64,000 nucleotides of DNA from Tubulanus polymorphus (lineage: Eukaryota > Animalia > Nemertea): positions 12,122,485 to 12,186,484 of the forward strand of contig NC_134027.1 of NCBI RefSeq assembly GCF_964204645.1, in the 5' to 3' direction. Under the pieces are notes generated by a model that was not told the origin of the DNA, made no database searches, and saw only the letters and a list, made by a program, of their open reading frames with translations. Both the position numbers and the translations under genes were made by a program. This document shows, in pieces, positions 36,913-63,888 of this stretch; the first letter of the stretch is position 1; every line of letters begins with the position of its first letter.

Positions 36913-36989
36913 CTGTTAATTCAAAATTTCAAATGTTACGGTTTTTTCAAATTGTCACCGCTGATGGTAAAGTAGGTAAAATATCAATG

Positions 36990-37080
36990 AGTAATTGGAA
37001 AAGTGGGCTTTCAGATCAGAGGACGAGAGGACGAGACACCACTCATCACCACAAGTAATTTCTTTTCCTAATAAATGGGA
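36990..37080 (+). repeat. Left terminal inverted repeat of the Polinton
   Basis: Perfect match to the reverse complement of 53254-53325 over ~72 bp; imperfect extension to the first ATG. Confidence 0.95.
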
Positions 37081-37400
37081 GATAGAAAAGCATTCTTAGC
37101 AACAATTAATAACAGAATAAAACCAGCAAAAAACAATTTGAAATAAAAAAGTTAGTTGATGTAACAAAAGAAATTGAACATAAAATATTGAAATTAGAAA
37201 AGATAGAAACTAAATATGGAGAGAAAGTATCCGCTAATTTAAGCTACTGTAATGTTAGTACATCGCGAGAATTTAAAGTATTTTTACCTGATAAATGGGT
37301 TTCATTGAGTACAGAGGAATTAAAAGATTTAGAAGGATTTAAAATAATCTATCATGGAAAAAATGAAGATGGCCATCATGATTTAGAAATTGTTGATTAA
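37075..37400 (+). CDS. Small Polinton protein, possibly an OB-fold ssDNA-binding protein; frameshift in an A-run at ~37130
   Basis: TAAATG start at 37075 joins ORF 37188-37400 (ETKYGEKV...KVFLPDKW) with a 1-nt shift; the fold assignment is a guess. Confidence 0.5.
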
Positions 37401-37561
37401 ATTTAAAAAAATAAATTAATAAAAATAATGAATATTAAGAATCCGAAATAACTTATCTGGACAATTTAATTGCTCCGCATAGATAGACAAAAGTAGTGAG
37501 ATATTCAATTAATATTCAATTAATTAAAAAAAAATTATTTTTTTGCTTTTTTTCTAAAATA

Positions 37562-37915
37562 TTAATCCATTTTTTTTATTGTCAATTTTGGAATTTCAGA
37601 ATTATTTTCATTTTTGATAGCAGTTGTTTCAGAATTATTAATATCATGAATTTTATTTGATTTCTTATACCAATTACACCCAATCAAAATGAATACAATT
37701 ACAAATCCAACTGTAAAATATAGACATTTATCAAATATTCTATTATTAGAAGGAGTAGAAATAACAATATTTTCACCATTTTTATTAACATTTTTATTAC
37801 TTATTTTTTCTTTTACAGCTTTTTTATATTCTTGTGATTTAATTCCTAATTGCCGAGACCATTCAATTTGTTTCTGTGATCTCGGTTTTTTCTTCACTTC
37901 TTCCACCTCGCTCAT
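37562..37915 (-). CDS. Polinton membrane protein, unknown function
   Basis: TAAATG start; one TM segment LYFTVGFVIVFILIG. Confidence 0.75.
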   Translation of the reverse strand: MSEVEEVKKKPRSQKQIEWSRQLGIKSQEYKKAVKEKISNKNVNKNGENIVISTPSNNRIFDKCLYFTVGFVIVFILIGCNWYKKSNKIHDINNSETTAIKNENNSEIPKLTIKKMD

Positions 37916-38438
37916 TTATTATAGAAATATTTTTATTTTCAATATTTGAAAATGTTATAACCCCAGTTGATAATAATGTCATAAATCCACCTAATTGAAA
38001 TGATAAATATCCAATCCATTTATTTAATTCAGTCATAACTAAATAATCATTTTTTAAATCGGAATATAATCTATTTTCATCTTCAATTGGTAGTATATAA
38101 TTACATAATTTACTATAACCTTTTACTACATTTTCTGATATCGCGTCATTAATTCTAGCTGTTCTCGCGGCTTCATAAATCTTAAATAATCTGATAATTT
38201 CATCTGATTTCATTGTATCTAATTCATTATAAGTTAAATTTTTACATTTTCCAGATGCTATTAATATTTCTAATTGATGTTTACAATAAAGATAATATTC
38301 ATAATTATTATTTGTTGTAACATTATTTAAAGCACCATCATCTGGAATTAATTTGTTTTCTGTTATTCCTAAATCATCTAAAGTTTTTTCAATTGGAACA
38401 TCACCATTTTTAGATTTTATTTTCATTTCACCTACCAT
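37863..38438 (-). CDS. Polinton protein with hydrophobic C-terminal segment, unknown function
   Basis: TAAATG start; WIGYLSFQLGGFMTLLSTGVITF. Confidence 0.75.
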   Translation of the reverse strand: MVGEMKIKSKNGDVPIEKTLDDLGITENKLIPDDGALNNVTTNNNYEYYLYCKHQLEILIASGKCKNLTYNELDTMKSDEIIRLFKIYEAARTARINDAISENVVKGYSKLCNYILPIEDENRLYSDLKNDYLVMTELNKWIGYLSFQLGGFMTLLSTGVITFSNIENKNISIINERGGRSEEKTEITETN

Positions 38439-38469
38439 TTATATAACAAAAAAATTATTTGTGATGTTG

Positions 38470-38742
38470 CAACTAGAATTCAACTAGAATGTTACTAGAA
38501 TTCAACTAGATTAACAAGCTAGTTGAAATATTGTTGTTTTTGTTTATTTCTTGTTAAATCTAGTTGATTTTTGTTCCAACTACCAATAACTCGAATTCAA
38601 CTAGAATGTAACTAGAATTAAACTAGATTAACAAGCTAGTTAAAATATTGTTAAATCTAGTTGATTTTTGTTACAACTACCAATAACTAGAATTCAACTA
38701 GAATGTAACTAGAATTCAACTAGATTAACAAGCTAGTTGAAT
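38470..38742. repeat. Non-coding CTAG-rich tandem/inverted repeat array inside the Polinton
   Basis: About 3 units of caactagaattcaactagaatgtwactagaattmaactagattaacaagctagtt. Confidence 0.85.
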
Positions 38743-39351
38743 TTAAATAAATTCATATTTAAATGGGTGTTGTAATCTAAATAGTAATTTTGATCTTTTA
38801 ATATTTTTCAACTTATCCATATATTCATTATGTAAATCATGTGGAATTATATCATTTTCCTCAAGTGCATTTTTCATCGATTTTCTATCTTTATTGTAGA
38901 ATAAAACTAGAAATCTAATGTTTTCTCTAAAGTCTTTAACAATTGAATTATATTTTTGATTTAAAACCCAAGTTGTTATCCCAAAATGTCTGCCAGAAAA
39001 AGCTAAATAGCATAACTCACTTTCTCTAACTTTTGAATCATGTAGACTAGCACAATCATCTATAATGAATAATGTATTTGATCCTTTATAAATATCAATT
39101 GCTATTTTAATACAATTATCTAAATTTTCTTCTACTGTTTTAGGATCTAATATAATAAATTTATTATTTCTAGTAATATTTCTATCATAAGTTTGATTAA
39201 ATTCATATGTTGGGCAAAATAATACTATATTATCAAAATAGTTTTCATAAACAGTTTCTAATAAATTTAATATAAAATAAGTTTTTCCACAATTTGTTAC
39301 GCCAGATATTAACATATTATGCGGCTCAAATATAAATAATTCTTTATTCAT
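38743..39351 (-). CDS. A32-like (FtsK/HerA) genome-packaging ATPase
   Basis: Walker A ISGVTNCGKT, Walker B LFIIDD, GRH motif, VLNQ. Confidence 0.92.
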   Translation of the reverse strand: MNKELFIFEPHNMLISGVTNCGKTYFILNLLETVYENYFDNIVLFCPTYEFNQTYDRNITRNNKFIILDPKTVEENLDNCIKIAIDIYKGSNTLFIIDDCASLHDSKVRESELCYLAFSGRHFGITTWVLNQKYNSIVKDFRENIRFLVLFYNKDRKSMKNALEENDIIPHDLHNEYMDKLKNIKRSKLLFRLQHPFKYEFI

Positions 39352-40477
39352 TTATATATTTTTAATTTTACTTGATAATATCCATTCATTGAATTTATCT
39401 GGCCATCCAACCCATTTTACTAAAGAATATTTTTTTCTTTTAATAGTTTTTGTTTTTAATACTTTTTCAATTTTATATTCTTGTTCTAGATTTTCAGTAG
39501 TTAAACTTAATTCTTCTTCGTAAAAGTAGCCATCAACTTCTTCACCATCTAAATCTTCTAATTTATAGACATATGGTTTTGTTGTTATTACCTTTTTTAT
39601 TTTATATATTTCTCTAGTAAAATTTCGATCGTATCCTTTATCAAATATCTTTTTATATCTTTTTATAACATTTTGACCAACTTTAAATTTAGGTTCACCT
39701 AAATCATCTACAAGAAATGCTCCATATAAATTATTCCAAACAATTTCAGCATTTTCAGGTTTTCTAGCATCAATAGGTTTCATTCCAATAGAAGAATGAT
39801 AAGAATTATTATATCCTTCTATCAATTTTGGTAAAACATCAATCCATTTAAAAGTATTATTTGCTGTAAAATATTTCCACATTCTTGTTCTTAATGTTCT
39901 ATTAAATCGTTCAACAACTGCTGCTTTTTTATCTGATATTGTTGAAAAATATCTAATATTATGATTGTCTAAGAGTTCATGAACAAGTGAATTATCAAAT
40001 TCTTTTCCATCATCAAATTGTATTTTTTCTGGTTTCAGTTTATCATCCGAAAGAAATTTTCTTAAAACATTTGATGTTTGTACAGCATCTTTTCTATAAA
40101 GTGGGAAGCTCCATACATAACGACTAAAAATATCAATTATATTCAATAACCACCAATAATCATCATTATCTTTCTTAACATTTTTCATATCAATTAAATC
40201 TCCTTGCCACTGTTGATCTACATAACTTACCATAGTTTTACGAGTTTTATATTTTCTAACAATTTTTTTATGTGTTGTGTATGTTGGTTGTTCTAACATA
40301 AATTCATTTATATCTTTATATTTAACTAAATTTTGTGGGATTATCTTATCTAATTTATCTTGTTTTACTTGACGCCATATATTTTTGGTAGAAGAAAAAG
40401 CAACCGAACTCTCAGGGTTGTAATATAAATTTCTTAAATATTGTTCTTTAGTATTAGGAGTTTTTTTTACCACCCAT
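39352..40477 (-). CDS. Retroviral-type (rve) integrase with C-terminal chromodomain
   Basis: WQGDLIDM, IDIFSRY, FDDGKEF, KAAVVERFNRTL, YNNSYHSSI, YKIEKVL..VKWVGWPDKFNEW; true start is probably TAAATG at 40477 with a 1-nt indel in the 40461-40468 homopolymer. Confidence 0.95.
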
Positions 40478-40507
40478 TTATATATCCTTAATTTTAACCT
40501 TATATTT

Positions 40508-41764
40508 CTAATATTGAACATTATCTAATTGTGAATTTACAATATCTAATTATGCGTCAGATATAATATAAATGTGCATTTTAAAATTTTTGATTCCTTT
40601 ATTCTTTGTCATGAATAATTGTATTCCATCTTTAGTGTTCTGTGATTTCTTCCCAGAACCATGTAATGAATTATCCTCTGTTGTTCTAAAATCTAACCAT
40701 AATGCATATTTATTACCGGTATAATAATCAATTTGATTAATGTTACAATTTTCAGATGATTTCACTTTTTCATTCATAAAATGTTTTCTAATTTCTGGCC
40801 ATTGATCAATCATTCTCATTCCTTGACAAAATATTTTATTTGCTATTCCTTCGATAGTTATTTCTACTTTTGTTATTTCAGGATTATAATAATTATCTAC
40901 CTTTATTGCTCCATTAGAATATGTTGCAATGGTAAAAAATATTAATATACCTTTAATAGATCTTCTTGGGAAGTTAATATTCTCATTAATTATTTCATCA
41001 TTTGCATTAATAGTTACAGTTTTAAATTTACTAATATAATCATATAATAATGAAAATCCTTGATTGTATTGAGTTTGAATTTTGCTAGCAATATTTTCAT
41101 TAGTTACTGTGTCATATTCTAAACATATATTCGATAATTTATAACCCATATCTTTAACAACGCTAGATAATACAATTTCATTTACAGGAGCAAATGTTAT
41201 CTCAAATATAATATCTTCTTGAATTGCGTATTTATATAAAGGTGCATTATTATTTATCAATTCAAAGTAATTATCAATTAATGGAATTTTATATTTGCTT
41301 CCATAAATCTTTTTAATCAAATTATCTACAGCATTAGTTACTATTGCGTCATTAGCTCCTGATCTTAATTTATTATGGTTTTCCGATTGAATACCCTGAA
41401 ATATCATATTATTTCTATTTTCTTTAGTTAACCATAAATCTTTATAATGCATAAATAAATTATAATCATCTAATGAGAATACTTTTTCTGGACCAATCTT
41501 TATTGTTAACTTTTTAATCAAATATCTTCCAACATTATCAACAACATAATTATTATCATTACCGGTTACTTGTATATCGGCTGATAATAAAATACTATTT
41601 GGAACATAAAAAGTATTTTGTGTTAATCGAGGAATTCTAACGTATAAAGTTTCATCAGGATTAATATTAGAAGGGTTATGAGTAATTATATGATGAGATC
41701 TTTCTGCTTTAATAGCATTAGATATTCTATGATTCTTAGAAGGATTGATATAACTCCCACTCAT
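40508..41764 (-). CDS. Major capsid protein (divergent double jelly-roll), premature TAA at 40550-40552
   Basis: ~417-codon beta-rich ORF next to the integrase and ATPase; reading through the stop gives IISDA*LDIVNSQLDNVQY; assigned from size, pattern and context. Confidence 0.72.
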
Positions 41765-41784
41765 TTATTTAACAAAAAAATTAA

Positions 41785-43209
41785 TTATTTATTTTTTATC
41801 ATGTTTACTAGCCCAAAAATAATTGCACTTACAACTGTAATTAAAAATAAAATAATATGTTCAGCAGCAAAGTTAATAATGTTTCCTGCAGATTTCAATA
41901 TGAAACCAACAATTGATGCAATAACTCCTGGTAATGCTGCAGCAGATTTTTTAGATAGTTCCCATAAATATTTTGCTAATTTCTTTAAACCATCCTTAAC
42001 TTTATCTTGTATAGAATTATTACCTGGGGGTTTATCTGGTTTATTGGGAGTAGGAGTAGATTTCAAAGCATTAGATATTGCTAAACCTATTGTTGTAAAT
42101 AACATAGTTACAGCTGTTAGAATTGAAAGAATTGTTATTCCTTCAAATTTAAATAATAATTCTATTCTATCTTTTAATGATATTTCAGAATTCGGTTTAA
42201 TCAACAAATCTTTAAAAATAACTTTTAATCTATTTATATTATAATCATATGATTTTAACAATAATTTAATTTCTTCTTTCTGTACATCTAAATTATCTTT
42301 TAAATTATTAATTTGTTTTTCTAAACGTAATTCTTTTTGCCTATATTCTATTTCATCAATTACTTGATGATCTAAATCAGACTTTAGTTGTTCTATTTCT
42401 TTATTTGCATTAGTTAATTCTTTTTCCAAATACATAATTTTTTGATCTCTTATACTTTTATTATGTGCAATTTTATCAGCTTCATTTCTTATACTAATAA
42501 TTTCTCTAATTGCTTCATCAGAAAATATATTTAAATCTTCTAATTGTTGATCTGTTGCATCAATTAATCCATTCGGTAAAAGTGTTTCAATTGAAACTTT
42601 ATTTGATTTAAGTTTACTAGTTTTGGAAGTTATATTCTGTTCAGATGTTGTTTCTGTTTCTGATTTCTTTTTGATTATTTCAAATAATTCATTAATTCTT
42701 TATTTAAATACGTCTATATCATTATCAGTTAATTCTTGTTTTATAACATCAGTTATTACATTACTATTACTAATTCTTTTAATTCTATCTGGATCTAATT
42801 TTCTCAAAGTTAATTTTGTTATTATTTTTTTTTTATAAGTGATATCAATATAATAATCATCTTTCAAACGATAATAACATTTACCATTATCTAAAAATTT
42901 TAATTGATCTGCTAAAAGTCCAACGTCTTCATCATTTATGTTAAGTTTAGATTTTTCAATTAAATCTTCTAATTTAGGTATTTTGTTTAAATTATCTAAA
43001 TCTTGTTTTACTAAACCTGGGTCTAAATTTTCAGGATTTAATTGTGATTCTGCATTTTTAATATAATCGGGCATATTTAAAGTATTATTATATCCTGGCT
43101 CATTACCGTCATTAGAACTTGTTTCACTAAAATCAGGTTGTTGTTCATCAGTTATGCCAGGTTCATCAAAAGGATCCATTCCAATATGTTCTCCACCTTC
43201 TACATCCAT
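41785..43209 (-). pseudogene. Coiled-coil protein with C-terminal TM helices, broken by an in-frame stop (~42700) and a frameshift
   Basis: ORFs 42700-43209 and 41785-42435 are bridged by an open frame ~42436-42680; a single TAAATG start at 43209. Confidence 0.7.
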
Positions 43210-43225
43210 TTATATAATAAAAAAA

Positions 43226-44524
43226 TTAAAATTTAAAATATAATATTCCTCCTATAACAATTCCTATATAAGTTAAAGCTAATTTAGTATTTTCATGTAA
43301 TTTATTATCATTATCAGTTTTAATTATATCATGTTGAATATCATCAGTTTTAATATTTTCTGTAGTATTATAATCCGGTTTAGAATCATTATTTAATTTA
43401 ATATTTTTAGTTTTAGTTTCTGTTGATTGAATACGTTTTTTATTTTTTTCACCTTCCATTAATTTTGGAGCAGTGATAATCTTTTTATTTATATCATTCA
43501 ATCCAAATGAATTATTTATTGTTGCGGTTTTAATTAGATTATTATAACCAATTATGTTTCCCATCTTTAATACTAAATCATTAGAAATAATAAATAGATT
43601 AGGGCCTATACAATAATTTAATCTAATATGTGATTTATCTAAATAATTTTGATATCTTACAATGTTTTCCGGAATCGATCTATTTTTATCATTATGAATT
43701 GAATCTTCAAATAATACTTTGAATTGTTTCTGCGCATCGAATGAAGTGTTATCATTTCCAATTATTGGGGATCTTGTTTCAACTTGCGCACCTAGAATAC
43801 ATATCAAATAAGTTCTAATAGATTGATTTATTCTTTGTATACCTGATTTTGTAAAACCTTCACCATTTTCTAAAATGAAATTAACCCAACCATTATTATT
43901 ATCAATGTTATAATTATGATAAGCTGAAATTCTATGCATATAATCAATTCTTTTTATTTCAAACTCTTCACCAACACCTTGCAATTTACCATGCGCTCTA
44001 AAATCGGAATTAATATTTATATTAAATTCATTACATATTTTATAAAACTTAGATAGATTAATATTATTATCCAATTCTTTAAAATATTTAGACCCGGGTA
44101 AAGGACATTCTAATTCATTTAATATTATTCTGATTTGAAAATATGTGTGAAATCTAAATATTGTGTGAATTAATTTTAAATCAGAATACTTCAAATTTTT
44201 ATCTAAGTTATTTAAATGATCATTCCAACTTATTCCGCATCCTGTTGTTGCACAATAAACAGCAAAATCTAATTGGTTCTGCCAATATTTCATATTAGAT
44301 TTTACTTTATATATATGATATTCATCTCGAGTAAAAGTAACTTCATATGTATTAAATATATTTTCCATTTTAGAAATAAAAAACTGTGATTCAGTAACAT
44401 AAATTTCTAAATTAGTTAATGAATTTAAAACTACATTTTTATATGTAATATTTTTTTTTAAATCTATTGCAGGAATATTATATTTAATTGATTTATTATA
44501 TTGGAAAGCTTTTGGAAACCCCAT
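43226..44524 (-). CDS. Polinton protein with C-terminal TM anchor, unknown function
   Basis: 432-aa ORF, TAAATG start, AVYCATTGCGISW motif, terminal ALTYIGIVIGGILYF. Confidence 0.8.
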   Translation of the reverse strand: MGFPKAFQYNKSIKYNIPAIDLKKNITYKNVVLNSLTNLEIYVTESQFFISKMENIFNTYEVTFTRDEYHIYKVKSNMKYWQNQLDFAVYCATTGCGISWNDHLNNLDKNLKYSDLKLIHTIFRFHTYFQIRIILNELECPLPGSKYFKELDNNINLSKFYKICNEFNININSDFRAHGKLQGVGEEFEIKRIDYMHRISAYHNYNIDNNNGWVNFILENGEGFTKSGIQRINQSIRTYLICILGAQVETRSPIIGNDNTSFDAQKQFKVLFEDSIHNDKNRSIPENIVRYQNYLDKSHIRLNYCIGPNLFIISNDLVLKMGNIIGYNNLIKTATINNSFGLNDINKKIITAPKLMEGEKNKKRIQSTETKTKNIKLNNDSKPDYNTTENIKTDDIQHDIIKTDNDNKLHENTKLALTYIGIVIGGILYFKF

Positions 44525-44540
44525 TTATATAATTAAAAAA

Positions 44541-44975
44541 TTAATAATTAACTAATTCTTTTAATAATTTATCTTGTTCTTCAACTGTTATATGGCCATT
44601 TAAATTTATTATATAATCTAGTGTATTCTTTAATTTATTAATTTCTTTTATATTAGTTTTAATTTTTTCTTTATTACTTTTTATATTTAATTTTGAACTT
44701 ATACCAGTTAAAACACTTGAACTTAATCCTAATACACCAATTGATATAGCTAAAGGTGTTAATGGACTGAATATTGCTAGAAATGTTATTAGAGAACTAA
44801 TTGTAACCGAACCACTTATAATCAAATAATATATAATTTTACTTTTTAAATATTTTTTCTTTTTTATCTTTAAGTCACTTTCAAATTCTAATATTTGTTT
44901 TTCTAAATATGTTTTTAATTTAGTTTTATTTATATCATGAGGAATAATATCAATATTATCAACTTTATCTTCCAT
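44541..44975 (-). CDS. Two-TM membrane protein
   Basis: TAAATG start; hydrophobic hairpin IIYYLIISGSV...AISIGVLGLSSSVL. Confidence 0.75.
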   Translation of the reverse strand: MEDKVDNIDIIPHDINKTKLKTYLEKQILEFESDLKIKKKKYLKSKIIYYLIISGSVTISSLITFLAIFSPLTPLAISIGVLGLSSSVLTGISSKLNIKSNKEKIKTNIKEINKLKNTLDYIINLNGHITVEEQDKLLKELVNY

Positions 44976-44995
44976 TTATTTAGCAAAAAAAATTA

Positions 44996-45418
44996 CTAAT
45001 TAGTAAACTTATAAGCAACAAATATAACAATAACTGTTCCACCTAAAATCAAAATTATTTCATATTTCTTCTGTTCATTACTTGGGGTATAATAATCTGA
45101 TAATTTAGGTTTGTATAGATGTAATTTTTCTTTATTGGTTTCCGCGTTATATAAACTCATTGCATCATCAACTGATTGAAAATCTCTGTGTGAAATCTTC
45201 TGATCATATAATTCTTTATTGATGTAATCCATATAGTTTTGTCTCTTTTCTCTATATTCTTCAGCTGCTTTATTGTATTTCTCTAATGCTAAGGTATGTC
45301 TTTTTTGTTCTGTAAATGAACCATTTTTATCAATATGCTTGAATAAATAACCACCACCAGTAAATGCTAAAGCGTTAACAATTGCCGATCCTATAATAGT
45401 TATAATTGCAGAAGCCAT
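44996..45418 (-). CDS. Membrane protein with N- and C-terminal hydrophobic segments
   Basis: TAAATG start; IITIIGSAIVNALAFTGG and IILILGGTVIVIFVAY. Confidence 0.75.
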   Translation of the reverse strand: MASAIITIIGSAIVNALAFTGGGYLFKHIDKNGSFTEQKRHTLALEKYNKAAEEYREKRQNYMDYINKELYDQKISHRDFQSVDDAMSLYNAETNKEKLHLYKPKLSDYYTPSNEQKKYEIILILGGTVIVIFVAYKFTN

Positions 45419-45442
45419 TTATTTAGTAAAATAATTACGCAT

Positions 45443-45664
45443 TTATATGGGAGGAATATATTTTTGTTTTTCCAAATAATCAATAGTTAAATTAGATAAA
45501 GTAACTGCTAATGTTAATTTTAAGAAATCATTTATATCAAATCTATCAACATTAACACTTCCCATTTTGAATACTTTTTTTAATACCATTGAATAACCAA
45601 CTGTTCCAACTGATAGTAATGCGCCATTATATAATCCAGTTATTATCCACTTATTATCACTCAT
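45443..45664 (-). CDS. Small hydrophobic Polinton protein
   Basis: TAAATG start; tightly packed with its neighbours. Confidence 0.65.
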   Translation of the reverse strand: MSDNKWIITGLYNGALLSVGTVGYSMVLKKVFKMGSVNVDRFDINDFLKLTLAVTLSNLTIDYLEKQKYIPPI

Positions 45665-45667
45665 TTA

Positions 45668-46021
45668 TTAATCAAAAAATTTACTATCTTCAAAATATTT
45701 AGTTATCTTAGTGATGATTATTTCAACATTTATTTTATTACTAGTTTCATTTGTATATATTTCAATTATTATTTTTTTAATATCATCGATGATAAAATCT
45801 TCATCTAATTCATAAAATCTTAAAGATTCTCTAATTAAATTAGTAATCTTTTCTACATTTAAAGTTTCTTTATCTATTGTTTTTTCATACTCAAATGTTG
45901 TTTCATTAGAAAATGCAATATTTTTAATATGTGTAATTACATCATTAATGTTAAATTTCATTTCTTTCTTACGTTTAAAATCAAAACCAAAACATATACT
46001 CGGTCCTACTGTTATATTCAT
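45668..46021 (-). CDS. Polinton protein, unknown function
   Basis: TAAATG start; tightly packed with its neighbours. Confidence 0.65.
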   Translation of the reverse strand: MNITVGPSICFGFDFKRKKEMKFNINDVITHIKNIAFSNETTFEYEKTIDKETLNVEKITNLIRESLRFYELDEDFIIDDIKKIIIEIYTNETSNKINVEIIITKITKYFEDSKFFD

Positions 46022-46037
46022 TTATATAGTGAAAAAA

Positions 46038-46796
46038 TTACTCTTTACATCTTATAACTAATTCATAAATTACGGGGAAATTATTTAAATCAATTAAGTG
46101 CCCATTATGATTTCTTATTTCTAATTTAAAATTATTAAATTGAGGAATACAAGGTTTAAAATCACATTCAGCTAAATTATAATTTATTTGCGTTCCAAAT
46201 TGTTTGACATTTTTCAATGGTAAAATATTTAATATACTAGAATGACAAATTGTATCTTTAGTTGCTTCAAATGTTTTTGTAGGATCGATTAAATTGCAAT
46301 AAATATAGAAATGTGTGTAAGGTATAATATTTGAATTACCGTCTACGTTTCCTGTAACAGTTTGTGGTTTAATTCCTAACAGTTTAGCTAAAGGTTTCCT
46401 TACCATAAATGCATGTTTGCTTTCATCATCTAACTTTATTTTGATTTTATCAGAACTATCACTTTTTATAAATTTAATTGAAAATTTATCTTCACTTTTA
46501 AGTTTTAATCGTGCTTTCCGATTAATTTCTTGGGCTAATGTTTCTAAATTATATAACCCTGGTTTTAACATTAGATAAAACCATTTATTTTTATTTTTCA
46601 TATGAATTGCAAAACCTCTATGTTCGAAAGTTTTATCCGATATATTATAAAAAGAATTACATAAACTTATATTTACTAATTTTAAATCTACACAATTCTT
46701 AAATTCTCTATTTAATTGAACTAGTAAATTATGTGATTTATAATTTGTAAGTTTTCTAGAATCAACAAATATTCTGTATTCTTTTAATTCTACCAT
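46038..46796 (-). CDS. Minor capsid (penton, single jelly-roll) protein
   Basis: IFVDSR..., NSFYNIS, LKPGLYN, FYIYCNLI, LEIRNHNGHLIDLNNFPVIYEL pattern typical of Polinton/virophage pentons. Confidence 0.8.
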   Translation of the reverse strand: MVELKEYRIFVDSRKLTNYKSHNLLVQLNREFKNCVDLKLVNISLCNSFYNISDKTFEHRGFAIHMKNKNKWFYLMLKPGLYNLETLAQEINRKARLKLKSEDKFSIKFIKSDSSDKIKIKLDDESKHAFMVRKPLAKLLGIKPQTVTGNVDGNSNIIPYTHFYIYCNLIDPTKTFEATKDTICHSSILNILPLKNVKQFGTQINYNLAECDFKPCIPQFNNFKLEIRNHNGHLIDLNNFPVIYELVIRCKE

Positions 46797-46864
46797 TATT
46801 TATAACATAAAAAAATTACCGCTCATCACTAAAAATCAATTTTAATAAAATTTTTCCTAAATAA

Positions 46865-48182
46865 ATGGATGAGAAGATAGCATGCGAAATTTGTGGTGAA
46901 CTTCTAAGAAAAAGTAATATGGCTCGACATATGAAAAAACATGATGAAAATTATAAACCCCCTAAACTAAACTGTCCAAAATGTAATAAATTATTCTCAA
47001 GAAATTATGTTAAAAAAACATTCAAAGAAGTGTAAAATTAATGGCGCAACGGCTAATGTTGATAGTAATGAAAGTAATAGTAATTCTGTTGAAGTTGAAC
47101 CTGAAGGTATTTGGAAAAGACCTTTCTTATTCTATGATAAGGATAATATAAAAGATCATATCTGTGAGCCTTGTCAAGTAAAATATAGCCCTGAAAATAT
47201 AGAAGATTGGGAGAATCATCAATTTCGTAAAGCACATATAGATAAAATTTCTAATAAATTTGAAACTGAATTCAATAAAAGAAAAGATAATTTATTAGAA
47301 AAAATAAAATATGAGAAAACGTTACCAGATAATAAAGAAACAGTTGAAAAGTTAGAAAAACAATATAATGAATTAACAAGAAAAACATATCATTGTAAAT
47401 ATTGTAAATTGATTATTAAAACAAGTAATTCAAATCTACATAATAGAACAATAAAACATAAAGAAAACGTAAGAAAATACCAGGAACTTAATGAAGATCT
47501 ATTACCAATAAATTATAAACGAAAATGTCCACAATGTAGTTATGCGACCTTAAGACAAGAAGGTACTGTGTTATTTTGTAATGAATGTGGATGGCAAAAG
47601 AATTTATGGAGTGAAGAAAAAACTAAAAATTTTCTCATAGATCCAAAATTAAATTATCTAGATGAAATTTTTAAAATATTTTCTATAGAAGATCATACAC
47701 CAGAATATATGCAATGGCTTGAAAAAATGAAAATAATAGAAAATAAAAATGGTGAAATAACTAAAAAAGATATTATAAAAACAATTATTCCGTCAACATT
47801 TAACACAAAACAAAAGAAAATGTATTTATATTTATTATTTAACGATTATTATGAAAAACCTAAATTAACAGAAGAAGATATGAAAAATATAAAAAAAATA
47901 TTCAAACAAATATTAATGTATCATTTGGAAAATAGAATAACAGATTCAATAAATTATGAATTCTTTTTAAATAAGATTGTAAATTATTTAAACCTAGATA
48001 TTATAATTCCATTTGATGAATTAACAAACAAAAAGAAACAAAGAGAGCGAGATGAAATGTGGAACAAGATAGAACTTTATTTAAATGAGAAAAATGAAAT
48101 GGAAGAAGAACCTAAACAATTAAATGAAAATGAAGAAGCCAATAGTGATTTCGAGAATGACGATATTGATTTTATGTTTTAA
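46865..48182 (+). CDS. Zinc-finger protein with C-terminal poxvirus A2/VLTF-3-like late transcription factor domain; frameshift in the A-run at ~47012-47018
   Basis: TAAATG start at 46865 (CEIC..HMKKH, CPKC); CPQC-x13-CNEC ribbon, KNFLIDPKLNYL, IKKIFKQI..SINYEFFLNKI..DEMWNKI match vaccinia A2 as recalled. Confidence 0.78.
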
Positions 48183-51100
48183 TGACCATAAGGTAATGTT
48201 TTTATACCATCATCTAAAATATGCCTTTTATCATCAAATGGATTCAAACTAGTTTTTTCAACTTCATTAATGTATATCTCGTGATATTCTGATCTTAAAC
48301 AATTCATTTTGTGTTTCATTACAATTGAGTTATATAAACACTTTATATAATCTTGAAATTCTATATGTTTATCAACCACATGTTTTGTTATTCCTTTTAA
48401 CTTTTTAGCTTCATGATCTTTTGTTCTATAACTATGCATTTTACTTCTTATCCCAACAAATTCAATCATTTCATCACCCCCTAATTCATCTTTAAACTTA
48501 CCAGGAATCTTTTTATTATCATTGCTAAATAGTTCATGATCTTTGGGATAATTGCTAAAATCAAAATGATGTTTTAATGTTTTTAAGTCTTTTGTTATAT
48601 CATTTGTCTTGATTTTTAGTATATACGCATCCGTATTGAAGCAAATTAATGGAAATCCACAGTTAAATAAACCATCTTCAGTTGATAAATCATAAACATA
48701 ATCTGATGGGTTATGTATTTCAAATAAATCTTTAACCTCTTCAGTTAAATCTTTTTCTGTGTGGCTTAGCTTAAAGCAATTTGGTTTAGATTTAATCAAT
48801 CCAATATTCATATTGAAGCCTAATGAATTACATAATATATTTAACCCTGATATAGCAACTTTTCCTTTCTGTGCAAAGGTTATCTTTTTATCTTTTGTAA
48901 ATTTTTTAGCACCATCTGCTGCATAGAATCCAATGAAGAACCATTTTCTTAAATTATTTTTTGCATTTAATACATAATCTGGAACTATCTTTTCTTTTGT
49001 TGAAGTATTACTTTTCACTATTGCATGAATATAGAATTCATCATTATATTTTATAGCAAAATCTTTAGGATTATTTATAAGTATTCTATAAACTGCTGAT
49101 GATTTCATAACATCCATGATTCTAAATGTTTTATGTGAATAAACTTCTTCACAGAATTTCTTAATTCTTTCTAATAATTTTAAGTCTTGATTGCATAAAT
49201 ACCAACAATATTTATTACCCCAAACATAATTATACACACCTGCTGAACCATCTCCCATGAAAAATCCTTTGATAAAATATTCTTTTTCTTCTAATGTTTC
49301 GGTTTCTATGTTATAAATATTATCAATTATTTCATCAAATGACATATGATTCATTCTTTGGAAAAATCTTTTATGTAATAATTCATCTCCAATTTTTATA
49401 TCAGTTGGTTTTATTTCATTACCATTTCGTTTAATTAAACTATGATCTTCTGTAACATCTACAAACCCTAATTTAGTTCTAACTCTATAAATTTTCTTAT
49501 TTGTTTTATGCCTAATAATATTCTTTAATTTTTTCCATCCATTTCTTGTCCAAACATCCATTAAACCATTTATTTGTATTAATTCTTTTTCACCATATGA
49601 AATATAACATTCATTTTGTTTTGGAATTATTTCTGAAATTCTTCTTACCAATATTTTATTATTACATTTTAATAATATTGGGGTGTCAGCTGTTACAGAA
49701 TCAAAATATAATATTTCAATATGCTTTTCCCCAAAAAGTGGTTGTAAAACATTATAATAAAAATCATACATTAATAATTTTGATACTTCTAAAACAGTTG
49801 AACCAATGAATATAGGTTTATCAAATTTCATTGACGTTCTTTTTAATTTAACTGCTGTTAAATAATCTTCAAATCTTTTATTTCCTAAATGTCTAGGACT
49901 TGATTGTAAATGTCTTAATCTTTCAGAATTATTTACTAATTCAATATCATTTCTATTTCTAATATTTTCACATGTTTTACAATAAAAACTATTGTTCATT
50001 AATTTAAAAAAATCTTTTTCAAAATCTGTTTTTGATATGGTACTCTGTTGAGTATTAAAATCTATATATTTTTCTAACCACTTCGATTGATTAAATTCAA
50101 TATATCTATGTACTTTCTTTAATTTCATTCCTTGTTTCAGATAAAATTTTAACATTCTATAATGAACAATATAATTGTATTTATTATTTTGAGTAAGTAT
50201 TAATTTTTCTGTAAAAACATGATCTTTCGGTTTTATTTTCTTCTGGTATTCACTTAAATAACTATCATCTACAGTTAAATGTTCTGGGCAATAAGGTAAG
50301 TTTCTTGTTTTAACCTTTATATTTTCAGGATATTCTAAATCAACTACAAAGAAATAACCAATTGGTGCTTCATCTTTTAAACTCGCAATTGCGCTTTCCC
50401 AATCAGTTTTATCATCATTTTCAACTTCTGTTAATATAAAATTTTTATATGGTTGAGGTTGCATCATTGCCCAACCATATAAATTATTGGTGTCAATATA
50501 TAATAATTTATATTAATCATTTGCTGTAAAATACCTATCTCCCATAACACCACTAATTCCACCTCTAATTGATTTTTCAAATAATAAAACCATATCTGGT
50601 TCTTTTAATAAATCTAATTCTACATTTGTATATTTTAAACCACATTGCCAGGTTAAACCAGGACTTGAATAACAATAACAAGGATCAACATTAAAATGAT
50701 TCAAATTAACTTCTCTAAATTTTTCAAATATGTCAGCCAATATCATAACATCTGATTTTAAATATAAATCAACTAATTCACCATGATTTTTCATCTTAAA
50801 ATGGTTCCAAATATTTAATTTTCTATTAAACACTTCGTCTTTCACATACTCCTCTTTTAATTGATCATAAAATTGATCTTTTAATAATTCTGTTACATTA
50901 AAATCATTGTGTGTTTTATAAAATGAATAAGGAATTGCGCCTTTATATCTCAATAATTTAAAATCTTGTTCATTTGGATAATAATATCGAGTTATAACAA
51001 AATCATTATCAACTAAACTTTTTGATAAATTATCTAATGAACTTGCTAGAAATCTATAAGAATCTAAAAATCTAATGCAACCAAATTGAAATGAAATATA

Positions 51101-53241
51101 ATTTTCAGATGTTTTAGCTAATAGTTTAAAATCATATTTTCTTACATTTACACCATTCATAGCATTATATTCTTCTATTTCTTGATTAATTGTACCCAAT
51201 TTCTTTGATAATTGTTTTATAAATAGATGGGTATCATAGCCTGATAAATTATGAAATAATATTGGTACGAAATTAACTTTCTTAGCTTGTAAATTGCAAT
51301 CTTCATGAGCAGCTCCACGATATTTTGAATTTAAATGATCATGATCTCTAACTTTTTTATCAAATGAATAAAAACGTTTTTCACAATAACAACAATGAGT
51401 TGCATAATTAAAATCAATTTCATCTTCTTTTGTCATAACTATTCTTTTATTTTTGTTTAATAATTTTGCAAAATCACTTTCTAATTCAATCATTTTATCA
51501 CAAAAAGCATTAACTACATTTTCACCTCTAAAAAAATATATTGACTTTCATATAATTCGGGATAATTTGATTTGATGTAAATTCCATAAGCAGCAGCTCT
51601 TTGATGAACTTTTTTAATTGTATTTATAATTGGTGGGTCTTGTATTGTGTCTTCATTTAATTCATTTCCTTTATCCATTGATTTTAATAATTGCTTTTTG
51701 TTATATATTTCTTTTCTATCTTGATCAGTTAATTCTTTATTCAACGATTCAAAATCCCCATAAATTACAAATGGAACAATATTCTTAAATTTATGATTAG
51801 TAAATTTCAATTTATAATCTTTTTCTGTTGGCATTATTAATTTGCAAAAATCTTTATTATCACATAATTCTTTATGTTTTAATAATGTATTCTCTGTCAT
51901 AAATTTAGATAAACATTTTCTACATAGATAAATTTTATGATGATGATCACTTTCTGTTCTAAAGAATAAATCAATTTGTTTTAACCACATATAATGTTCA
52001 TTTTCATCTTTTTTGTAATATAACAAATCTATAGCATTTTCATCATCATAATATTCTGTTAAATATAAAGCTTCCAATGTATAATCTTTAATATTTTCAC
52101 CTTTTGTCTTTGGTAATTGCATTAATTCAAATACATTTATTTTTAACTTATTAATTTTTTCTATTTTGGGTATCATTTTTATAGTTACTGGATATTGATC
52201 AATTTTATATAATGTTTCATATTTCCGATAATCTGTTATTCTACAAACATTTTCCTGTGTTGGATGTGAACAACTAATAATTGACCATAGAAAACATTTA
52301 TTATCTTCATTTTGAACATTTATTACTGCTTTTGTTGTAAATGGTAATTTAATATAAGATGATGCTTTAATATCCTTTTCTGTTGTAAAGTTTGAATCAT
52401 TTTTAAACATTTTATTACTTTTTGATGTTTTATTCCTTATTGTATTGTAAACATTTAAATCTAAATATATAATTTCATTCAATGTTAAGCCAGAACCCTC
52501 AAAATATCTTTCTTCAATATGACGTTTAAATTCATTGAATATTTTTTCTAACTTCTCTTTTATTTGCGTTTTTGAAATTATTTCTTCAGAGAGTGTTTGA
52601 ATATTATAATCCATTTTTTCTTCTGACTTTATAAAACTTACTTTCCCAGAGATACTAATTTTTGGATATTCAACATCTGTTATCAAATCTAGTATTTTTT
52701 CTATTATTTCATTAAATTTACTATAATCTTCTATTGTTGTACCTTTAAAAAATCTAAATATAATAGCTGCAGGACCAATTTTACTATGTAATGTTTCTAA
52801 AATTTCAATTGTATCTTTTATTTCTAGTGAATCAATATAATTTCTAACATTTTCCATGTAAGGTTTATTTGAAATGGATTTAGTTTTTGAATTTGGTTTT
52901 TTTACTTTTTGAGGTTTATCGTTAAAATAATCTTTTCCTAAAACATTATTACTCAAATTTTGGTGGTGTTTTTGTGATTCGAGATGTCTATTATAATTCC
53001 TTTTTACTATAAATTCATTACAAACTTCACATTTTATTTCATCCACATTCATATTTTCTAATCTTTCTTTTCTTTCATTGGAATTTTCTGGAGTTTCAAA
53101 ATCTATTACATTTTTTATATGATTTGCAGTTTTTTCATGTCGTGTTTTATTAGATCTATCCACGTATTTTTTACAATATGTGCAATAATATTGATTTTTA
53201 TTAACATTATTGTTTTCTGGCTGGTGTTCATTCTCCCCCAT
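48179..53241 (-). pseudogene. Protein-primed family B DNA polymerase (pPolB) with intein; one frameshift (~51530) and one in-frame TAA (50513-50515)
   Basis: YGDFES (exo I), FHNLSGYD, FLDSYRFL, YLKSDV, YIDTNNLYGWAM (motif A, read through the stop), KLMNNSFY.K (motif B), YFD/TDA (motif C split by the intein), GKFKDE, KLKGI, DDKR. Confidence 0.95.
48635..49699 (-). mobile_element. Intein (355 aa) with LAGLIDADG homing endonuclease inserted in pPolB motif C
   Basis: YFD|SVTADTPILL...VTEDHSL (block B TxxH)...FIKGFFMGDGS...FFIGFYAADG...YVYDLSTE...LICFN|TDA; removing it restores YFDTDA. Confidence 0.95.
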
Positions 53242-53325
53242 TTATTAGGGAAAAAATTACTTGTGGTGATGAGTGGTGTCTCGTCCTCTCGTCCTCTGAT
53301 CTGAAAGCCCACTTTTCCAATTACT
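53236..53325 (-). repeat. Right terminal inverted repeat of the Polinton
   Basis: Reverse complement of the left TIR; followed by TSD TCAATG. Confidence 0.95.
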
Positions 53326-53337
53326 TCAATGAACTAC

Positions 53338-54194
<857 letters not shown>

Positions 54195-57093: not shown

Positions 57094-60000
57094 ATGCCAC
57101 GTAAAACGAAAAGGCTTAAACAATTGTGCAGTGCCAGACAGACAGCCAAGGTATTAATTGTAATCTAGTAATAATATATTTAATTAATAAGCATTATTAT
57201 TCATTTTTTTTTAGACTTCAAAACTACACTTGATATTTTGGTTCATACTCCGCAACTATGTAAATGATATTAAATTTAGTTGCATTCTCTTGTAGGTTAA
57301 GGCACATACAGAACCAGAGCCGATAGCCAGCGATGCCAATCCATTGGAGTATCATCTCCACAAACAAAATGAGACTGAGGAGTATCCTCTCCCTAATAAA
57401 AAAAAGGAGTGTGTGGAGTATCCTCTCTGTGAAAAAAAGGAGTGCTTAAAGACATGCTCAAAGACATGCTTAAAGACATCTAAAGATTTTTGCTTGCCGA
57501 AACTCGTGAATGTATCTGATGCTTCTTCCTCAGAGAAGTGTATTAATACAGATAAATTCAGTAATGTAAGTTCAGAAATTGTTTCGAGATTCTCACCTTA
57601 TGCTATGTGCGTGAGAGGTCATTTTCACCAAGGTGATACAAAGTTATTTAGTGCATTATCAGTTGGAAACCAGTGTACATGTAATGCATTAGTCAGTCTT
57701 TGTAAACTACCATCTTTGAGTAGGGTAACAGCTAATGATATTGACCAGGTCCTCTTTCAAGGTGACTCTTTGTACATTAGTGTCAGAATGAATCAGTCCA
57801 ACAGATATTTAAGTTTTGATGAACTGCCATTATTTATACCAGTTGATAGACCTAAGTACAGAATAAATAGGCTTTCTAGCTACTATGTGAGTTATGACAA
57901 CATAGAAAAGGCACATGGGATATTTCATTCTCTTTGTGCTGCTATAACTCAATCATTATCTGATTCTATAACGGTTCTTGTCATGATTGGTGAATTTGCA
58001 ATAGCAATATACAGTTTAAGTGGAATGTATTTTGTATTTGATTCTCATAGTCGAGACAATTATGGAAACTTTGTTGATGACAGTACAGGTACAGCAGTTT
58101 TACTAAAGTTTCCTAACTTGGATGAAATAAAGAAGTATTTGAGATATTATATTTTAACCTGCTGCAGTCAACAGCATCGTTCTTGTGAATTTTTACCGAT
58201 CAAAATTGAAAATGTCGAGGAGAGTAAAAATGAATCTAGTCTAGCAAATTATGTATTCGATCAGAAGATAAAAAGACAGGAGTATATTCGTCTGTATAAG
58301 CAGAAACAGAGACAAGATGAGGCATTTAAAACAAATGAAAGAACTTGTAAACATAAAGCTAGAATGATCCCTGAGAAAAGAGCGAGTGAACAGATCCAAG
58401 GTAGACAAAGTAAGCAAAGAGCTAGAGCGATACCTGAAAAAAAAGCAGCTGATCAGCTTAGTAAGCAAAAAGCTAGAGCGACACCTGAAAAAAAGGCAGC
58501 TGAACGAATTCACAGTAGATTAAGTAGGCAAAGAGCTAGAGCGATACCTGCAAAAAAAGCAGCTGAACACCTTAGTAAGCAAAAAGCTAGAGCGACACCT
58601 GAAAAAAAGGCAGCTGAAAATATTCACAGTAGATTAAGTAGGCAAAGAGCTAGAGCGATACCTGCAAAAAAAGCAGCTGAACAGATTCACAGTAGATTAA
58701 GTAAGCAAAGAGCTAGAGCGATACCTGAAAAAAAGGCAGCTGAAATGATTCACAGTAGATTTAGTAAGCAAAAAGCTAGAGCGATTCCTGAAAAAAAGGC
58801 AGCTGAACAGATTTACAGTAGATTTAGTAAGCAAAAAGCTAGAGCGATTCCTGAAAAAAAGGCAGCTGAAATGATTCACAGTAGATTAAGTAAGCAAATA
58901 GCTAGAGTGATTCCTGAAAAAAGAACAGCTGAACAGACTCTGGACAAATTAAGGAAGCAAAAGAAACGAAATGAAAGCAGTTTCAGACAAAATGAAGTCA
59001 AACAAAAACGAAAGACTAGAGAAAGTGACCTATATAAAGAATTTGAAAGAGAAGCTAAAGCCGCAAAAAGAGCATTATTTAGAGAAAATGAAATAAATTT
59101 TGCGAATGCAGAAGATATCAGCTCTCAGTGTTCGACAAATTCGAATTTTGCTACCAAGCGAAAATGTGATTTAATGAAAGTCATTGATAAATTTCATGAA
59201 AAGATTTCAATTGGTCCAATATATGTGTGCACATGCTGTCACCAGACCTGGTTCCAACATTCAGCACAGAAATCTTCATTATTAACCTCTAAGTTATCTG
59301 ACAAACTAAAAGAAAAATGTATTACTGGAAAGATTTCAGTTAATGATGAACAATGGCTGTGTGTAACATGTGCAGAATCATTGAAAAAGAATAATGTGCC
59401 AAAGCTATCTGTGGCCAATGGATTGTCATTCCTGGAAAAACCAAAAGAATTGGAATTATTTCTTAGAATTCCTTTTATGAGTTTGTATGAATTACCGAGA
59501 GGTGGTCAATATCAGCTGCAGGGATCTGTTGTGAATGTTCCAGTTGACATTGCTCCGACTGTTCAGTCATTGCCAAGAAATGTTGACACAGCTGCTACAG
59601 TTCCAATAAAGTTAAAACGCAAGCTCAGTTACAAAACAGCAGTATTACAACAGAATGTTAGGCCTTTAGCTGTATTAGCTGCTCTACACTATTTGATGAG
59701 AACCACTCTGTATAAAAATGCAAACATAAACATTGATGAGAACTGGTTGAACACAGTTTGTGAAGAGCAAGGTATCATACCACCATCTGAACCTGAAAAT
59801 GATTATGCCAGTGATAGTGATTCTGATGCTTTTAGTGAAATAGACCCAGATGAGAATCCAACAGGAAATCAGGATACTATGTTAGATGAAGCAAGCATTG
59901 ATTCTGTAAGGGTTTTGACATATGCTCCAGGTGAAGGTCAGAAACCATTGAGTCTGTTCCAAGATAAAGATGCCGAATATTTATCATTTCCCACAATATA

Positions 60001-63000: not shown

Positions 63001-63888
63001 AGCTTTAAATACTGTATTAGGGGATGTTTCTGATGATGTTAAGGAACGAACTTTACTTCATTTAAAAAACTGTAAGAAGTACATGGTTCATACAGAAACT
63101 GGAGGGTTAATATCTCAATTGAGATTGGCAATAGGATTACAGTATGACACAACGGTTAATATTGATGTAGATGATGGCATTACAAATGGTACATCATGCA
63201 TATTGAAAAAAATTGAGTACAGACAAGGTGTTTGTAGGCCAGCAATACTTTGGGTTGCTTTCACTGATCCAAAAATAGGAAAAGACTGTCGAAGCAAAAA
63301 TAGACATTTTATCATAAAGGTGTAAATAGATCATGGACTCCAATCTTTGCTATAATAAGGACTTTCACTGTGAACCGAGCATATGTAAATAGACAACAAT
63401 TCCCTATGTGTCCTTCAGCTGCAAAAACAATTCACAAGTGTCAAGGATATACATTAAAAGAAGCTGTTATCCACATGGGCACCAGGAAATTAGCACAGTC
63501 ACATTATACTGCTCTAAGCAGAGTTACAAATCTGAACAAGCTTTACATTCTTGAACTGAATGAAGGAAAGATATCCGTGTATGATTCAACCTTGGAGGAA
63601 ATGGCTAGATTGCGTTCAGAGAGAACTGTTCAATTATGCTATACACCTGTTTATCAGTTGCCTTTGAATGATCATCGCCTCATATTTCAAAATGTGAGAT
63701 CATTGAATTTACACTTTTCTGATATTGTATGTGATAAAAATTATTTGACAGCAGATGTGATAGGATTTGTTGAAACTTGGTTAATAGATACAGATTCTAG
63801 TGAATGCTATGAAATTGAGGGATTTACTATGATCCGCATGCTCCACATGGTTCATGTAGACCACACCACGGTATTGCTTTGTATGTGA
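57094..63888 (+). CDS. Helentron Rep/helicase polyprotein: herpes-tegument-like cysteine peptidase, basic repeats, Zn finger, HUH Rep, PIF1 helicase, AP-type endonuclease; frameshifts at ~63310 and ~63850
   Basis: Exon 57094-57150 spliced to 57296; GHFHQGD..GNQCTCNA..FDSHSR; GLPTWFMSLSAAD; EFQHRGSAHIHLL; YITNYISK; SGSGGVGKS; IIDEVS; GDLFQLEPV; MRQKDD; TIHKCQG; YTALSRV; FQNVRSL..FVETWL. Confidence 0.93.
58355..58940 (+). repeat. ~54-66-bp coding tandem repeat (RARAIPEKKAAEQIHSRLSKQ-like)
   Basis: About 9 units visible in both DNA and protein. Confidence 0.9.

Follow-up and report, generated by a model that had tools for sequence, protein, structure and literature searches.

How the genes of animal Maverick/Polinton elements are expressed, and whether such elements live as independent viruses, as transposons or at the expense of larger viruses, are long-standing questions that are raised by a 64,000-nucleotide stretch (the window) of contig NC_134027.1 of the nemertean Tubulanus polymorphus (forward-strand positions 12,122,485 to 12,186,484). 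The window holds a full-length, decayed Polinton-type element with 15 genes, backed by orthologues, and all 15 carry TAAAT(G/A) over the start codon, counting one TAAATA variant; a 20-nt motif on every gene makes the question of expression directly testable. On the reading that we favour, with a probability of about 0.65, the motif would be a post-replicative (late) promoter that depends on a large cytoplasmic DNA virus infecting the same cell, whose RNA polymerase would transcribe the genes, and the element would be a virophage-like satellite of that virus.

All 14 starts that an earlier note on this DNA had read as ATAAATG were confirmed, while the fifteenth, at 46796, reads ATAAATAATG. The note's claim that every gene starts in a T-run followed by this initiator held for the initiator (14 of 15 genes plus the one variant) but for the T-run at 12 of 15 starts only, a run of at least four T within -25..-7 being missing at 37915, 39351 and 40477. 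TAAATG was found at 14/15 starts compared with 38 of the 434 other ATGs that come first after an in-frame stop (Fisher p = 2e-13), as the note had expected, and the longer ATAAATG at 14/15 compared with 15/434 (Fisher p = 9e-18). Restricting the control set to first ATGs removes a bias, because TAA-ATG is always a first ATG; among all other ATGs inside the element (GC 0.24), TAAATG stood at 38 of 642. Since the 15 starts had been picked with the motif in mind, independent counts matter, and a mechanical caller of open reading frames (ORFs) placed the motif at 11 of its 17 ORFs, the six misses being 46796 and five downstream pieces of broken genes. Orthologues backed the starts at 37075, 40477 and 46865, in agreement with the suggestion that the motif reveals the true starts of broken genes, and the motif supplies correct gene starts for annotation. 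Position by position, T, A and A occupied -19, -18 and -17 in 12, 13 and 13 of the 15 starts, T occupied -14, -13, -12 and -11 in 14, 13, 12 and 13, and A occupied -4 in all; the T-run was centred on -14..-11, with TAATTT upstream of nine starts and TTTTTNT upstream of five.

The motif is conserved in relatives of the element. A metagenome scan with an alignment of the major capsid protein (MCP) returned 123 relatives, 80 of which were kept and counted per locus; a FastTree phylogeny was built from the 45 of these loci with an unbroken MCP stretch, and 44 of the 80 were pooled by clade, near-duplicates and most short, broken or unplaced loci being left out. MCP searches of IMG/VR returned no relatives. 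The element grouped with L001-L011 and L016 (support 0.999), a clade in which TAAATG was found at 46 of 55 genes compared with 64 of 1119 other first ATGs, and at 16 of 18 in members with a GC of 0.32-0.44; L001, which is syntenic with the element, has it at 15 of 17 ORFs. At the 46 TAAATG starts of this clade, T occupied -12 in 93% and -13 in 78%, and the base at -3 was T in 47 of the 55 genes, compared with a purine in 26/31, 29/36 and 16/16 genes of three sister clades. Elsewhere in the tree, TAAATG was measured at 13/13 starts in clade B (L031, L038, L060), 4/7 in clade C, 11/14 in three unplaced loci, and 0/31, 0/36, 2/59, 0/5 and 0/16 in clades D, E, F, G and H, respectively. Clade D starts were enriched for TATAG and ATATA (11/31 each, p 1e-10), ATATA being weaker in E, F and G, and clade H had AAAATG at 9/16 starts. 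With weak support for its deep branches, the tree does not fix the number of motif switches. TAAATG heads 6/6 ORFs of a Polinton-type contig of distant kinship (L250:143-8035), which has an ATPase 25% identical to that of the element, a longer integrase with chromodomain and a protein-primed DNA polymerase (pPolB); therefore, the motif also occurs outside the element's clade.

Other features of these loci were recorded in passing. TATAG/ATATA-rich or AAAATG starts in place of TAAATG were seen in sister loci L013, L018, L032, L056, L058, L042, L055, L063, L073 and L046. Back-to-back divergent promoters lie within 15-30 nt of each other in L007-L011, L031, L038 and L060, and in L031/L038 two divergent starts overlap by 22 nt. 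In L001 the central 12-gene block is inverted relative to the window, and a deoxynucleoside kinase gene (10340-10981, minus strand; PF01712 E 2e-31) stands under the same motif.

The earlier note had likened this architecture to that of vaccinia late promoters, and the likeness is borne out. In vaccinia the late initiator TAAAT(G/A) lies over the start codon (PMC5294985), a form that also covers the 46796 variant, and a conserved T stands 10 nt upstream of TAAAT, i.e. at -13 (PMC11980589). In the element TAAAT(G/A) likewise overlaps the ATG and the conserved T falls at -12 to -14, so that here, too, TAAAT is preceded at a distance of about 10 nt by a T within a T-rich stretch, with T at -14..-11 in 12-14 of the 15 starts. 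Late genes of salmon gill poxvirus are also flagged by TAAATG (PMC4542343). The late initiators of African swine fever virus (ASFV) and pacmanvirus are TATA (PMC7163114) and TATATA (PMC11788076), which the start motifs of the TATA-type sister clades match.

The motif also stands at the inner ends of both terminal inverted repeats (TIRs) and in spacers of 16-24 nt. No RNA polymerase or capping family was matched by Pfam among the 17 element ORFs, and no DFDGD motif was present in the six-frame translation of the element. If these are promoters of this type, then, with no polymerase gene detected in the element, we infer that a second virus has to supply the enzyme, as happens for Gezel-14T, mavirus and Sputnik, which carry helper-matched promoters (10.1101/2022.07.28.501842). 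The element would then be largely silent while in the host chromosome. Upon helper infection, the T core around -12 to -14 would be bound by viral late factors, and the polymerase would start within the AAA and slip, so that a 5' poly(A) leader would immediately precede the AUG. A T at -3 is a poor context for scanning unless a slippage leader replaces that T; its prevalence here fits slippage on template TTT, by which the leader would put A in place of the T and each gene would yield its own message without a templated 5' untranslated region (UTR). Polymerase slippage yields such 5' poly(A) leaders in vaccinia and on the yeast pGKL elements (PMC6211774). Once the helper has replicated its DNA, all genes, polymerase and integrase included, would become active at the same time, in the manner of mavirus and Sputnik, and the sister clades may be tuned to other helpers (TATA-type, AAAATG-type).

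A pox-related virus is our first candidate for the helper, a tentative choice held at clearly less than even odds, and a poxvirus is not proven in this role. Polinton-like viruses (PLVs) have been found in entomopoxvirus occlusion bodies (PMC11296320), and egoviruses, which are pox relatives in marine sediment, have exchanged genes with Polintons, in a report whose accessible text holds no promoter analysis (10.1101/2024.03.23.586382). Several points weigh against the satellite reading or its poxvirus form. This copy has frame breaks or in-frame stops in at least six of its genes, which makes present activity unlikely; about nine element ORFs lack an assigned function, and an element-encoded transcription factor is possible; and we know of no described poxvirus of lophotrochozoans. 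In three IMG/VR motif scans, screened for loci with TAAATG heading most genes (68 loci analysed, then 160 of 240, 80 being too short), no poxvirus-like record was present among the high-scoring loci inspected. The scans gave iridovirus-like and other candidates, none tied to this host, and the motif is thus not exclusive to poxviruses.

The same satellite mechanism could operate with a relative of the invertebrate iridoviruses and ascoviruses (Pimascovirales) as helper, an alternative that is counted within the probability given above and that we consider unlikely, although it retains an appreciable share; if it were true, the label "poxvirus" would fall. T-run + ATAAATG starts almost identical to those of the element were found in L190 (336-8032; TAAATG at 4/5 starts, two with a T-run), but this sample comprises five genes only. 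L190 also carries MSV199/DUF3627 genes, which we take to be typical of invertebrate iridoviruses. Two iridovirus-like bins have TAAATG at 15/41 (G001) and 9/22 (G002) starts; the G002 capsid is closest to the grouper iridovirus MCP (E 9e-117), and that of G001 resembles it by eye only. G001, however, mixes TAAATG with AAAATG (11/41), and neither bin shows a sharp T at -12/-13 (0.47/0.53 in G001 and 0.44/0.56 in G002 versus 0.93/0.78 in the element's clade). Late transcription of iridoviruses is probably cytoplasmic and viral (PMC5923455), which would suit such a helper, yet the iridovirus promoters that have been mapped are placed upstream of the start site and give templated leaders (PMC5294985), and the accessible portions of these two reviews describe upstream AAAAT elements, not an architecture of the window's type. 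The iridovirus-like loci L173 and L179 have T-run + ATAAATG starts at 8/17 and 6/12, respectively, a pattern absent from the same portions of PMC5294985 and PMC5923455. For a helper related to neither poxviruses nor iridoviruses we see only a slim chance.

An intein in the pPolB of the element provides a separate trace of contact with large viruses. It has 314 relatives, and in a tree of the best 60 of 115 full-length matches it falls in an 11-member clade (support 0.999) among inteins of RNA-primed PolBs; three of the 10 other sequences of this clade come with PF03175, and the same-site family is otherwise found in RNA-primed PolBs, including that of a named mimivirid. The intein is not present in the pPolB of L023 or L059. 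This distribution suggests an old transfer between giant-virus-type and protein-primed polymerases and fits a history in which the element shared hosts with such viruses. As a guide to the helper the intein fails, because giant-virus loci with related inteins (L081-L112) have TAAATG at 48 of 337 starts only, a count that also tells against the satellite reading. Homing-endonuclease insertions in Polinton pPolBs have been noted before (PMC11071308).

Outside the satellite reading, the element could be a nuclear Polinton that lives autonomously and is transcribed by host Pol II, with the motif as a compact host-type signal: TATA/initiator-like, an A-rich translation context, or AATAAA as the poly(A) signal of the upstream gene. 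An integrase with chromodomain and a perfect target-site duplication (TSD) indicate that the element reaches the nucleus, most motif copies contain AATAAA or TATAAA, and some PLVs are autonomous nuclear viruses (TsV; 10.64898/2026.06.19.733378). The fixed position of the motif over the ATG, however, leaves no room for a Pol II 5' UTR, and T at -3 runs counter to the purine preference of the sister clades. Moreover, 24 divergent starts and both TIRs carry the motif, and at these sites no gene lies upstream that could use a poly(A) signal. We regard transcription by Pol II from such a signal as unlikely.

A further possibility, which we judge improbable, is that TAA-ATG serves stop-start coupling or reinitiation on a polycistronic RNA and that the T-runs are terminators, a role the earlier note had allowed for in the form TTTTTNT. 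The TAA of the ATPase gene's ATAAATG doubles as the stop codon of the integrase gene, this fusion (gap 0) recurs in several relatives, and the TAA of TAATTTTTT serves as the upstream stop codon in three cases. Most upstream stops, however, do not adjoin the ATG but lie 16-32 nt off (distances in the window of 0, 16, 16, 16, 20, 20, 24, 32 and 304 nt). Termination did not stand up as the main role of the T-runs, which are also present in both TIRs, where no gene lies upstream, and are as frequent with the motif at divergent (10/24) as at tandem (15/36) TAAATG starts of relatives; thus, the T-run does not depend on an upstream gene. Only 5 of 15 upstream runs fit TTTTTNT, and the coding strands of genes, among them those for MCP, ATPase, integrase and polymerase, contain 11 TTTTTNT. 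On the other side, coding strands are mildly depleted of T5 (25 vs 36.7 expected, p 0.007) and TTTTTNT (9 vs 14.8 expected, p 0.02), and ASFV terminates at poly(T) (PMC7163114); a secondary role of the T7-T8 runs as poly(T) terminators is possible. The spacer of converging genes at 37400-37560 has T7-T9 runs on both strands, which are candidate poly(T) terminators. Finally, an artefact of 76% A+T and of motif-based start picking, to which one might assign the 38 of 52 TAAATG in the element that are not gene starts, is refuted by the matched control and by the relatives' counts and retains virtually no probability, internal TAAATG being at the expected level (25 vs 24.2) and the motif being kept in relatives up to GC 0.44 and absent from the equally AT-rich L032 (0/16, GC 0.33).

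If the satellite reading holds, lophotrochozoans should be host to a large cytoplasmic DNA virus, and the motif would be the signature of its late promoters. The change of motif from clade to clade provides a means of matching Polintons with classes of helper on sequence evidence only. In its boldest form, which we rate as doubtful although conceivable, marine lophotrochozoans would be infected by an undiscovered poxvirus or close relative and would carry, integrated and heritable, Polinton-type virophages with late promoters of that virus on every gene. If true, this would be an animal counterpart of mavirus-style inducible antiviral defence; switches of the start motif (TAAATG, TATA-type, AAAATG) would mark elements changing helpers, and Polinton promoters would read out the missing large-virus virome of invertebrates.

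The coordinates of the element and its genes are collected in Table 1. The element is an AT-rich island in surroundings with a GC of ~0.38, and it combines the Maverick/Polinton features of a pPolB, an RVE integrase, TIRs, a 6-bp TSD, an A32 ATPase and a double jelly-roll (DJR) MCP. The TIR arms are 99% complementary over 75 nt and the match continues through the motif with one small indel, so that each inner end is a copy of the motif serving one of the two outermost genes.

Table 1. Features of the Polinton-type element, in window positions
Feature	Position	Strand	Start motif	Remarks
Polinton-type element, full-length, decayed	36990..53325			16,336 bp; defined by TIRs, TSD and composition
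Left TSD, TCAATG	36984..36989	+		6 bp
Right TSD, TCAATG	53326..53331	+		6 bp; exact copy of left
Left TIR	36990..37079	+		inner end is T-run + ATAAATG of 37075 gene
Right TIR	53237..53325	-		inner end is motif of pPolB gene (53241)
37075 gene	37075..37400	+	T4 run, ATAAATG	frame break ~37120-37145
117-aa protein	37562..37915	-	ATAAATG, no T-run of 4	hydrophobic segment
191-aa protein	37863..38438	-	T7 + ATAAATG	family-conserved
A32-like packaging ATPase	38743..39351	-	ATAAATG, no T-run	PF04665 E 4e-13
RVE integrase with chromodomain	39352..40477	-	ATAAATG at 40477	PF00665 E 4e-10
DJR MCP	40510..41764	-	T7 + ATAAATG	in-frame stop at codon 405
43209 gene	41785..43209	-	T7 + ATAAATG	family-conserved; C-terminal hydrophobic segments; in-frame stop at codon 170
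432-aa protein	43226..44524	-	T6 + ATAAATG	family-conserved; C-terminal hydrophobic helix
144-aa protein	44541..44975	-	T8 + ATAAATG	hydrophobic segments
140-aa protein	44996..45418	-	T4 + ATAAATG	family-conserved
73-aa protein	45443..45664	-	T6 + ATAAATG	hydrophobic; family-conserved
117-aa ORF	45668..46021	-	T6 + ATAAATG	L001 orthologue matched by first 24 aa only
252-aa protein	46038..46796	-	T7 + ATAAATAATG variant	
Zinc-finger protein	46865..48182	+	T5 + ATAAATG	zf-U1; divergent from 46796
pPolB	48179..53241	-		PF03175 E 4e-10; broken into three ORF pieces
LAGLIDADG intein of pPolB	48635..49699	-		355 aa; in polymerase motif C

Orthologues clarified several of these genes. That of the 37075 gene in L001 is 71% identical and its N-terminal part fits the frame of 37075; integrase orthologues align from 40467-40479, the frame break lying soon after the start; the L001 orthologue of the 43209 gene measures 485 aa; and the zinc-finger gene, with a frame break at ~47000-47030, has an L001 orthologue that aligns from 46868. 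The 252-aa protein, presumably a putative minor capsid (penton) protein by its sequence pattern, is 44% identical to an L001 orthologue that starts with TAAATG, and homologues of the pPolB are found in L023, L059 and L250. An AlphaFold2 model of the MCP (pLDDT 88.8) matched capsids of PBCV-1 and other nucleocytoplasmic large DNA viruses (NCLDVs) in Foldseek (E 8e-16), the fold matches being NCLDV, unnamed, adintovirus and MELD capsids at 8-15% identity, and an Atlas search with the MCP returned viral clusters without a name and DJR families, and nothing else. The 432-aa protein was considered as a possible transcription or entry factor, but its model (pLDDT 67) had no fold match (best E 0.16, best Z 3.7), a result that excludes no family. 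No adenain-like cysteine protease was matched by Pfam among the 17 element ORFs, several of which carry no family assignment. The 304-nt spacer between the ATPase and 191-aa genes (38439-38742) contains 97-nt and 11-nt repeats rich in CTAG/AACTAGAATT.

The element probably sits in an intron of a lophotrochozoan-type NDC80 gene: exons of an NDC80-like host gene border it on both sides, and among named proteins the closest come from nemerteans (85-90% identity; only 2 matches among 75 candidates). The minus-strand segments 36913-36989 and 53326-53460 place the insertion apparently 6 nt past the splice donor of an ~83-nt intron of this kinetochore gene. A surrounding endogenous giant virus, suggested by T-run + TAAATG outside the element (29601, 35378, 35752), was rejected, the flank being an exon-intron NDC80-like gene. 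Just beyond the right end of the element lies a perfect (CTG)245 repeat (53459-54194), and the plus strand at 57605-63325 holds an ORF of 1906 aa that looks intact and encodes a Helitron Rep/Pif1 helicase with a Herpes_teg_N-like domain at its N-terminus.

Earlier work has described protist virophages and PLVs whose promoters match those of their helpers, PLVs in the occlusion bodies of entomopoxviruses, and animal elements with Aquintovirus-like ATPases. No report of pox-late-type promoters in an animal Polinton was found in the searched literature, whose coverage leaves out most subscription journals, and the accessible portions of 10.64898/2026.10.13.758929, PMC11071308 and PMC12220804 make no mention of promoters. 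With animal Maverick/Polintons, including those with Aquintovirus-like ATPases, the element shares pPolB, RVE integrase, A32 ATPase, DJR capsid, TIRs and 6-bp TSD (10.64898/2026.06.19.733378), and it differs in having no detected adenain-like protease, several membrane-type proteins and an intein in its pPolB; according to the available part of that source, no virions of animal Polintons have been seen, and promoter motifs are not discussed there. The entomopoxvirus-associated PLVs are likewise animal elements, proposed as hyperparasites of poxviruses, and one of their lineages lies near PgVV and Nematostella Polinton-3/N1A capsids (PMC11296320). They differ from the element in their insect hosts, the presence of a cysteine protease and the lack of an RVE integrase, and the accessible main text of PMC11296320 contains no mention of promoter, motif or TAAAT.

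The yeast cytoplasmic virus-like elements pGKL1/2 are also linear DNAs replicated by a pPolB, with a TAAAN initiator and poly(A) leaders made by slippage (PMC6211774), but pGKL2 brings along a poxvirus-like RNA polymerase and a capping enzyme and lacks both capsid and integrase, whereas the Polinton-type element has capsid and integrase and no detected polymerase. With the late promoters of vaccinia and other poxviruses the motif shares TAAATG overlapping the start codon, the TAAATA variant and the T about 10 nt upstream of TAAAT; it differs in adding TAA at -19..-17 and A at -4, in heading all genes, polymerase and integrase included, and in its place on a 16-kb integrating element without a detected RNA polymerase. 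Mavirus, which carries RVE integrase and pPolB and integrates, belongs with Sputnik and Gezel-14T to the systems in which a small jelly-roll capsid element carries the promoter motif of its helper (CroV, mimivirus and PgV, respectively). In those virophage systems the hosts are protists, the helpers are mimivirids and the motifs are TCTA or AAAATTGA, whereas in the window the host is an animal and the motif is of the pox-late type.

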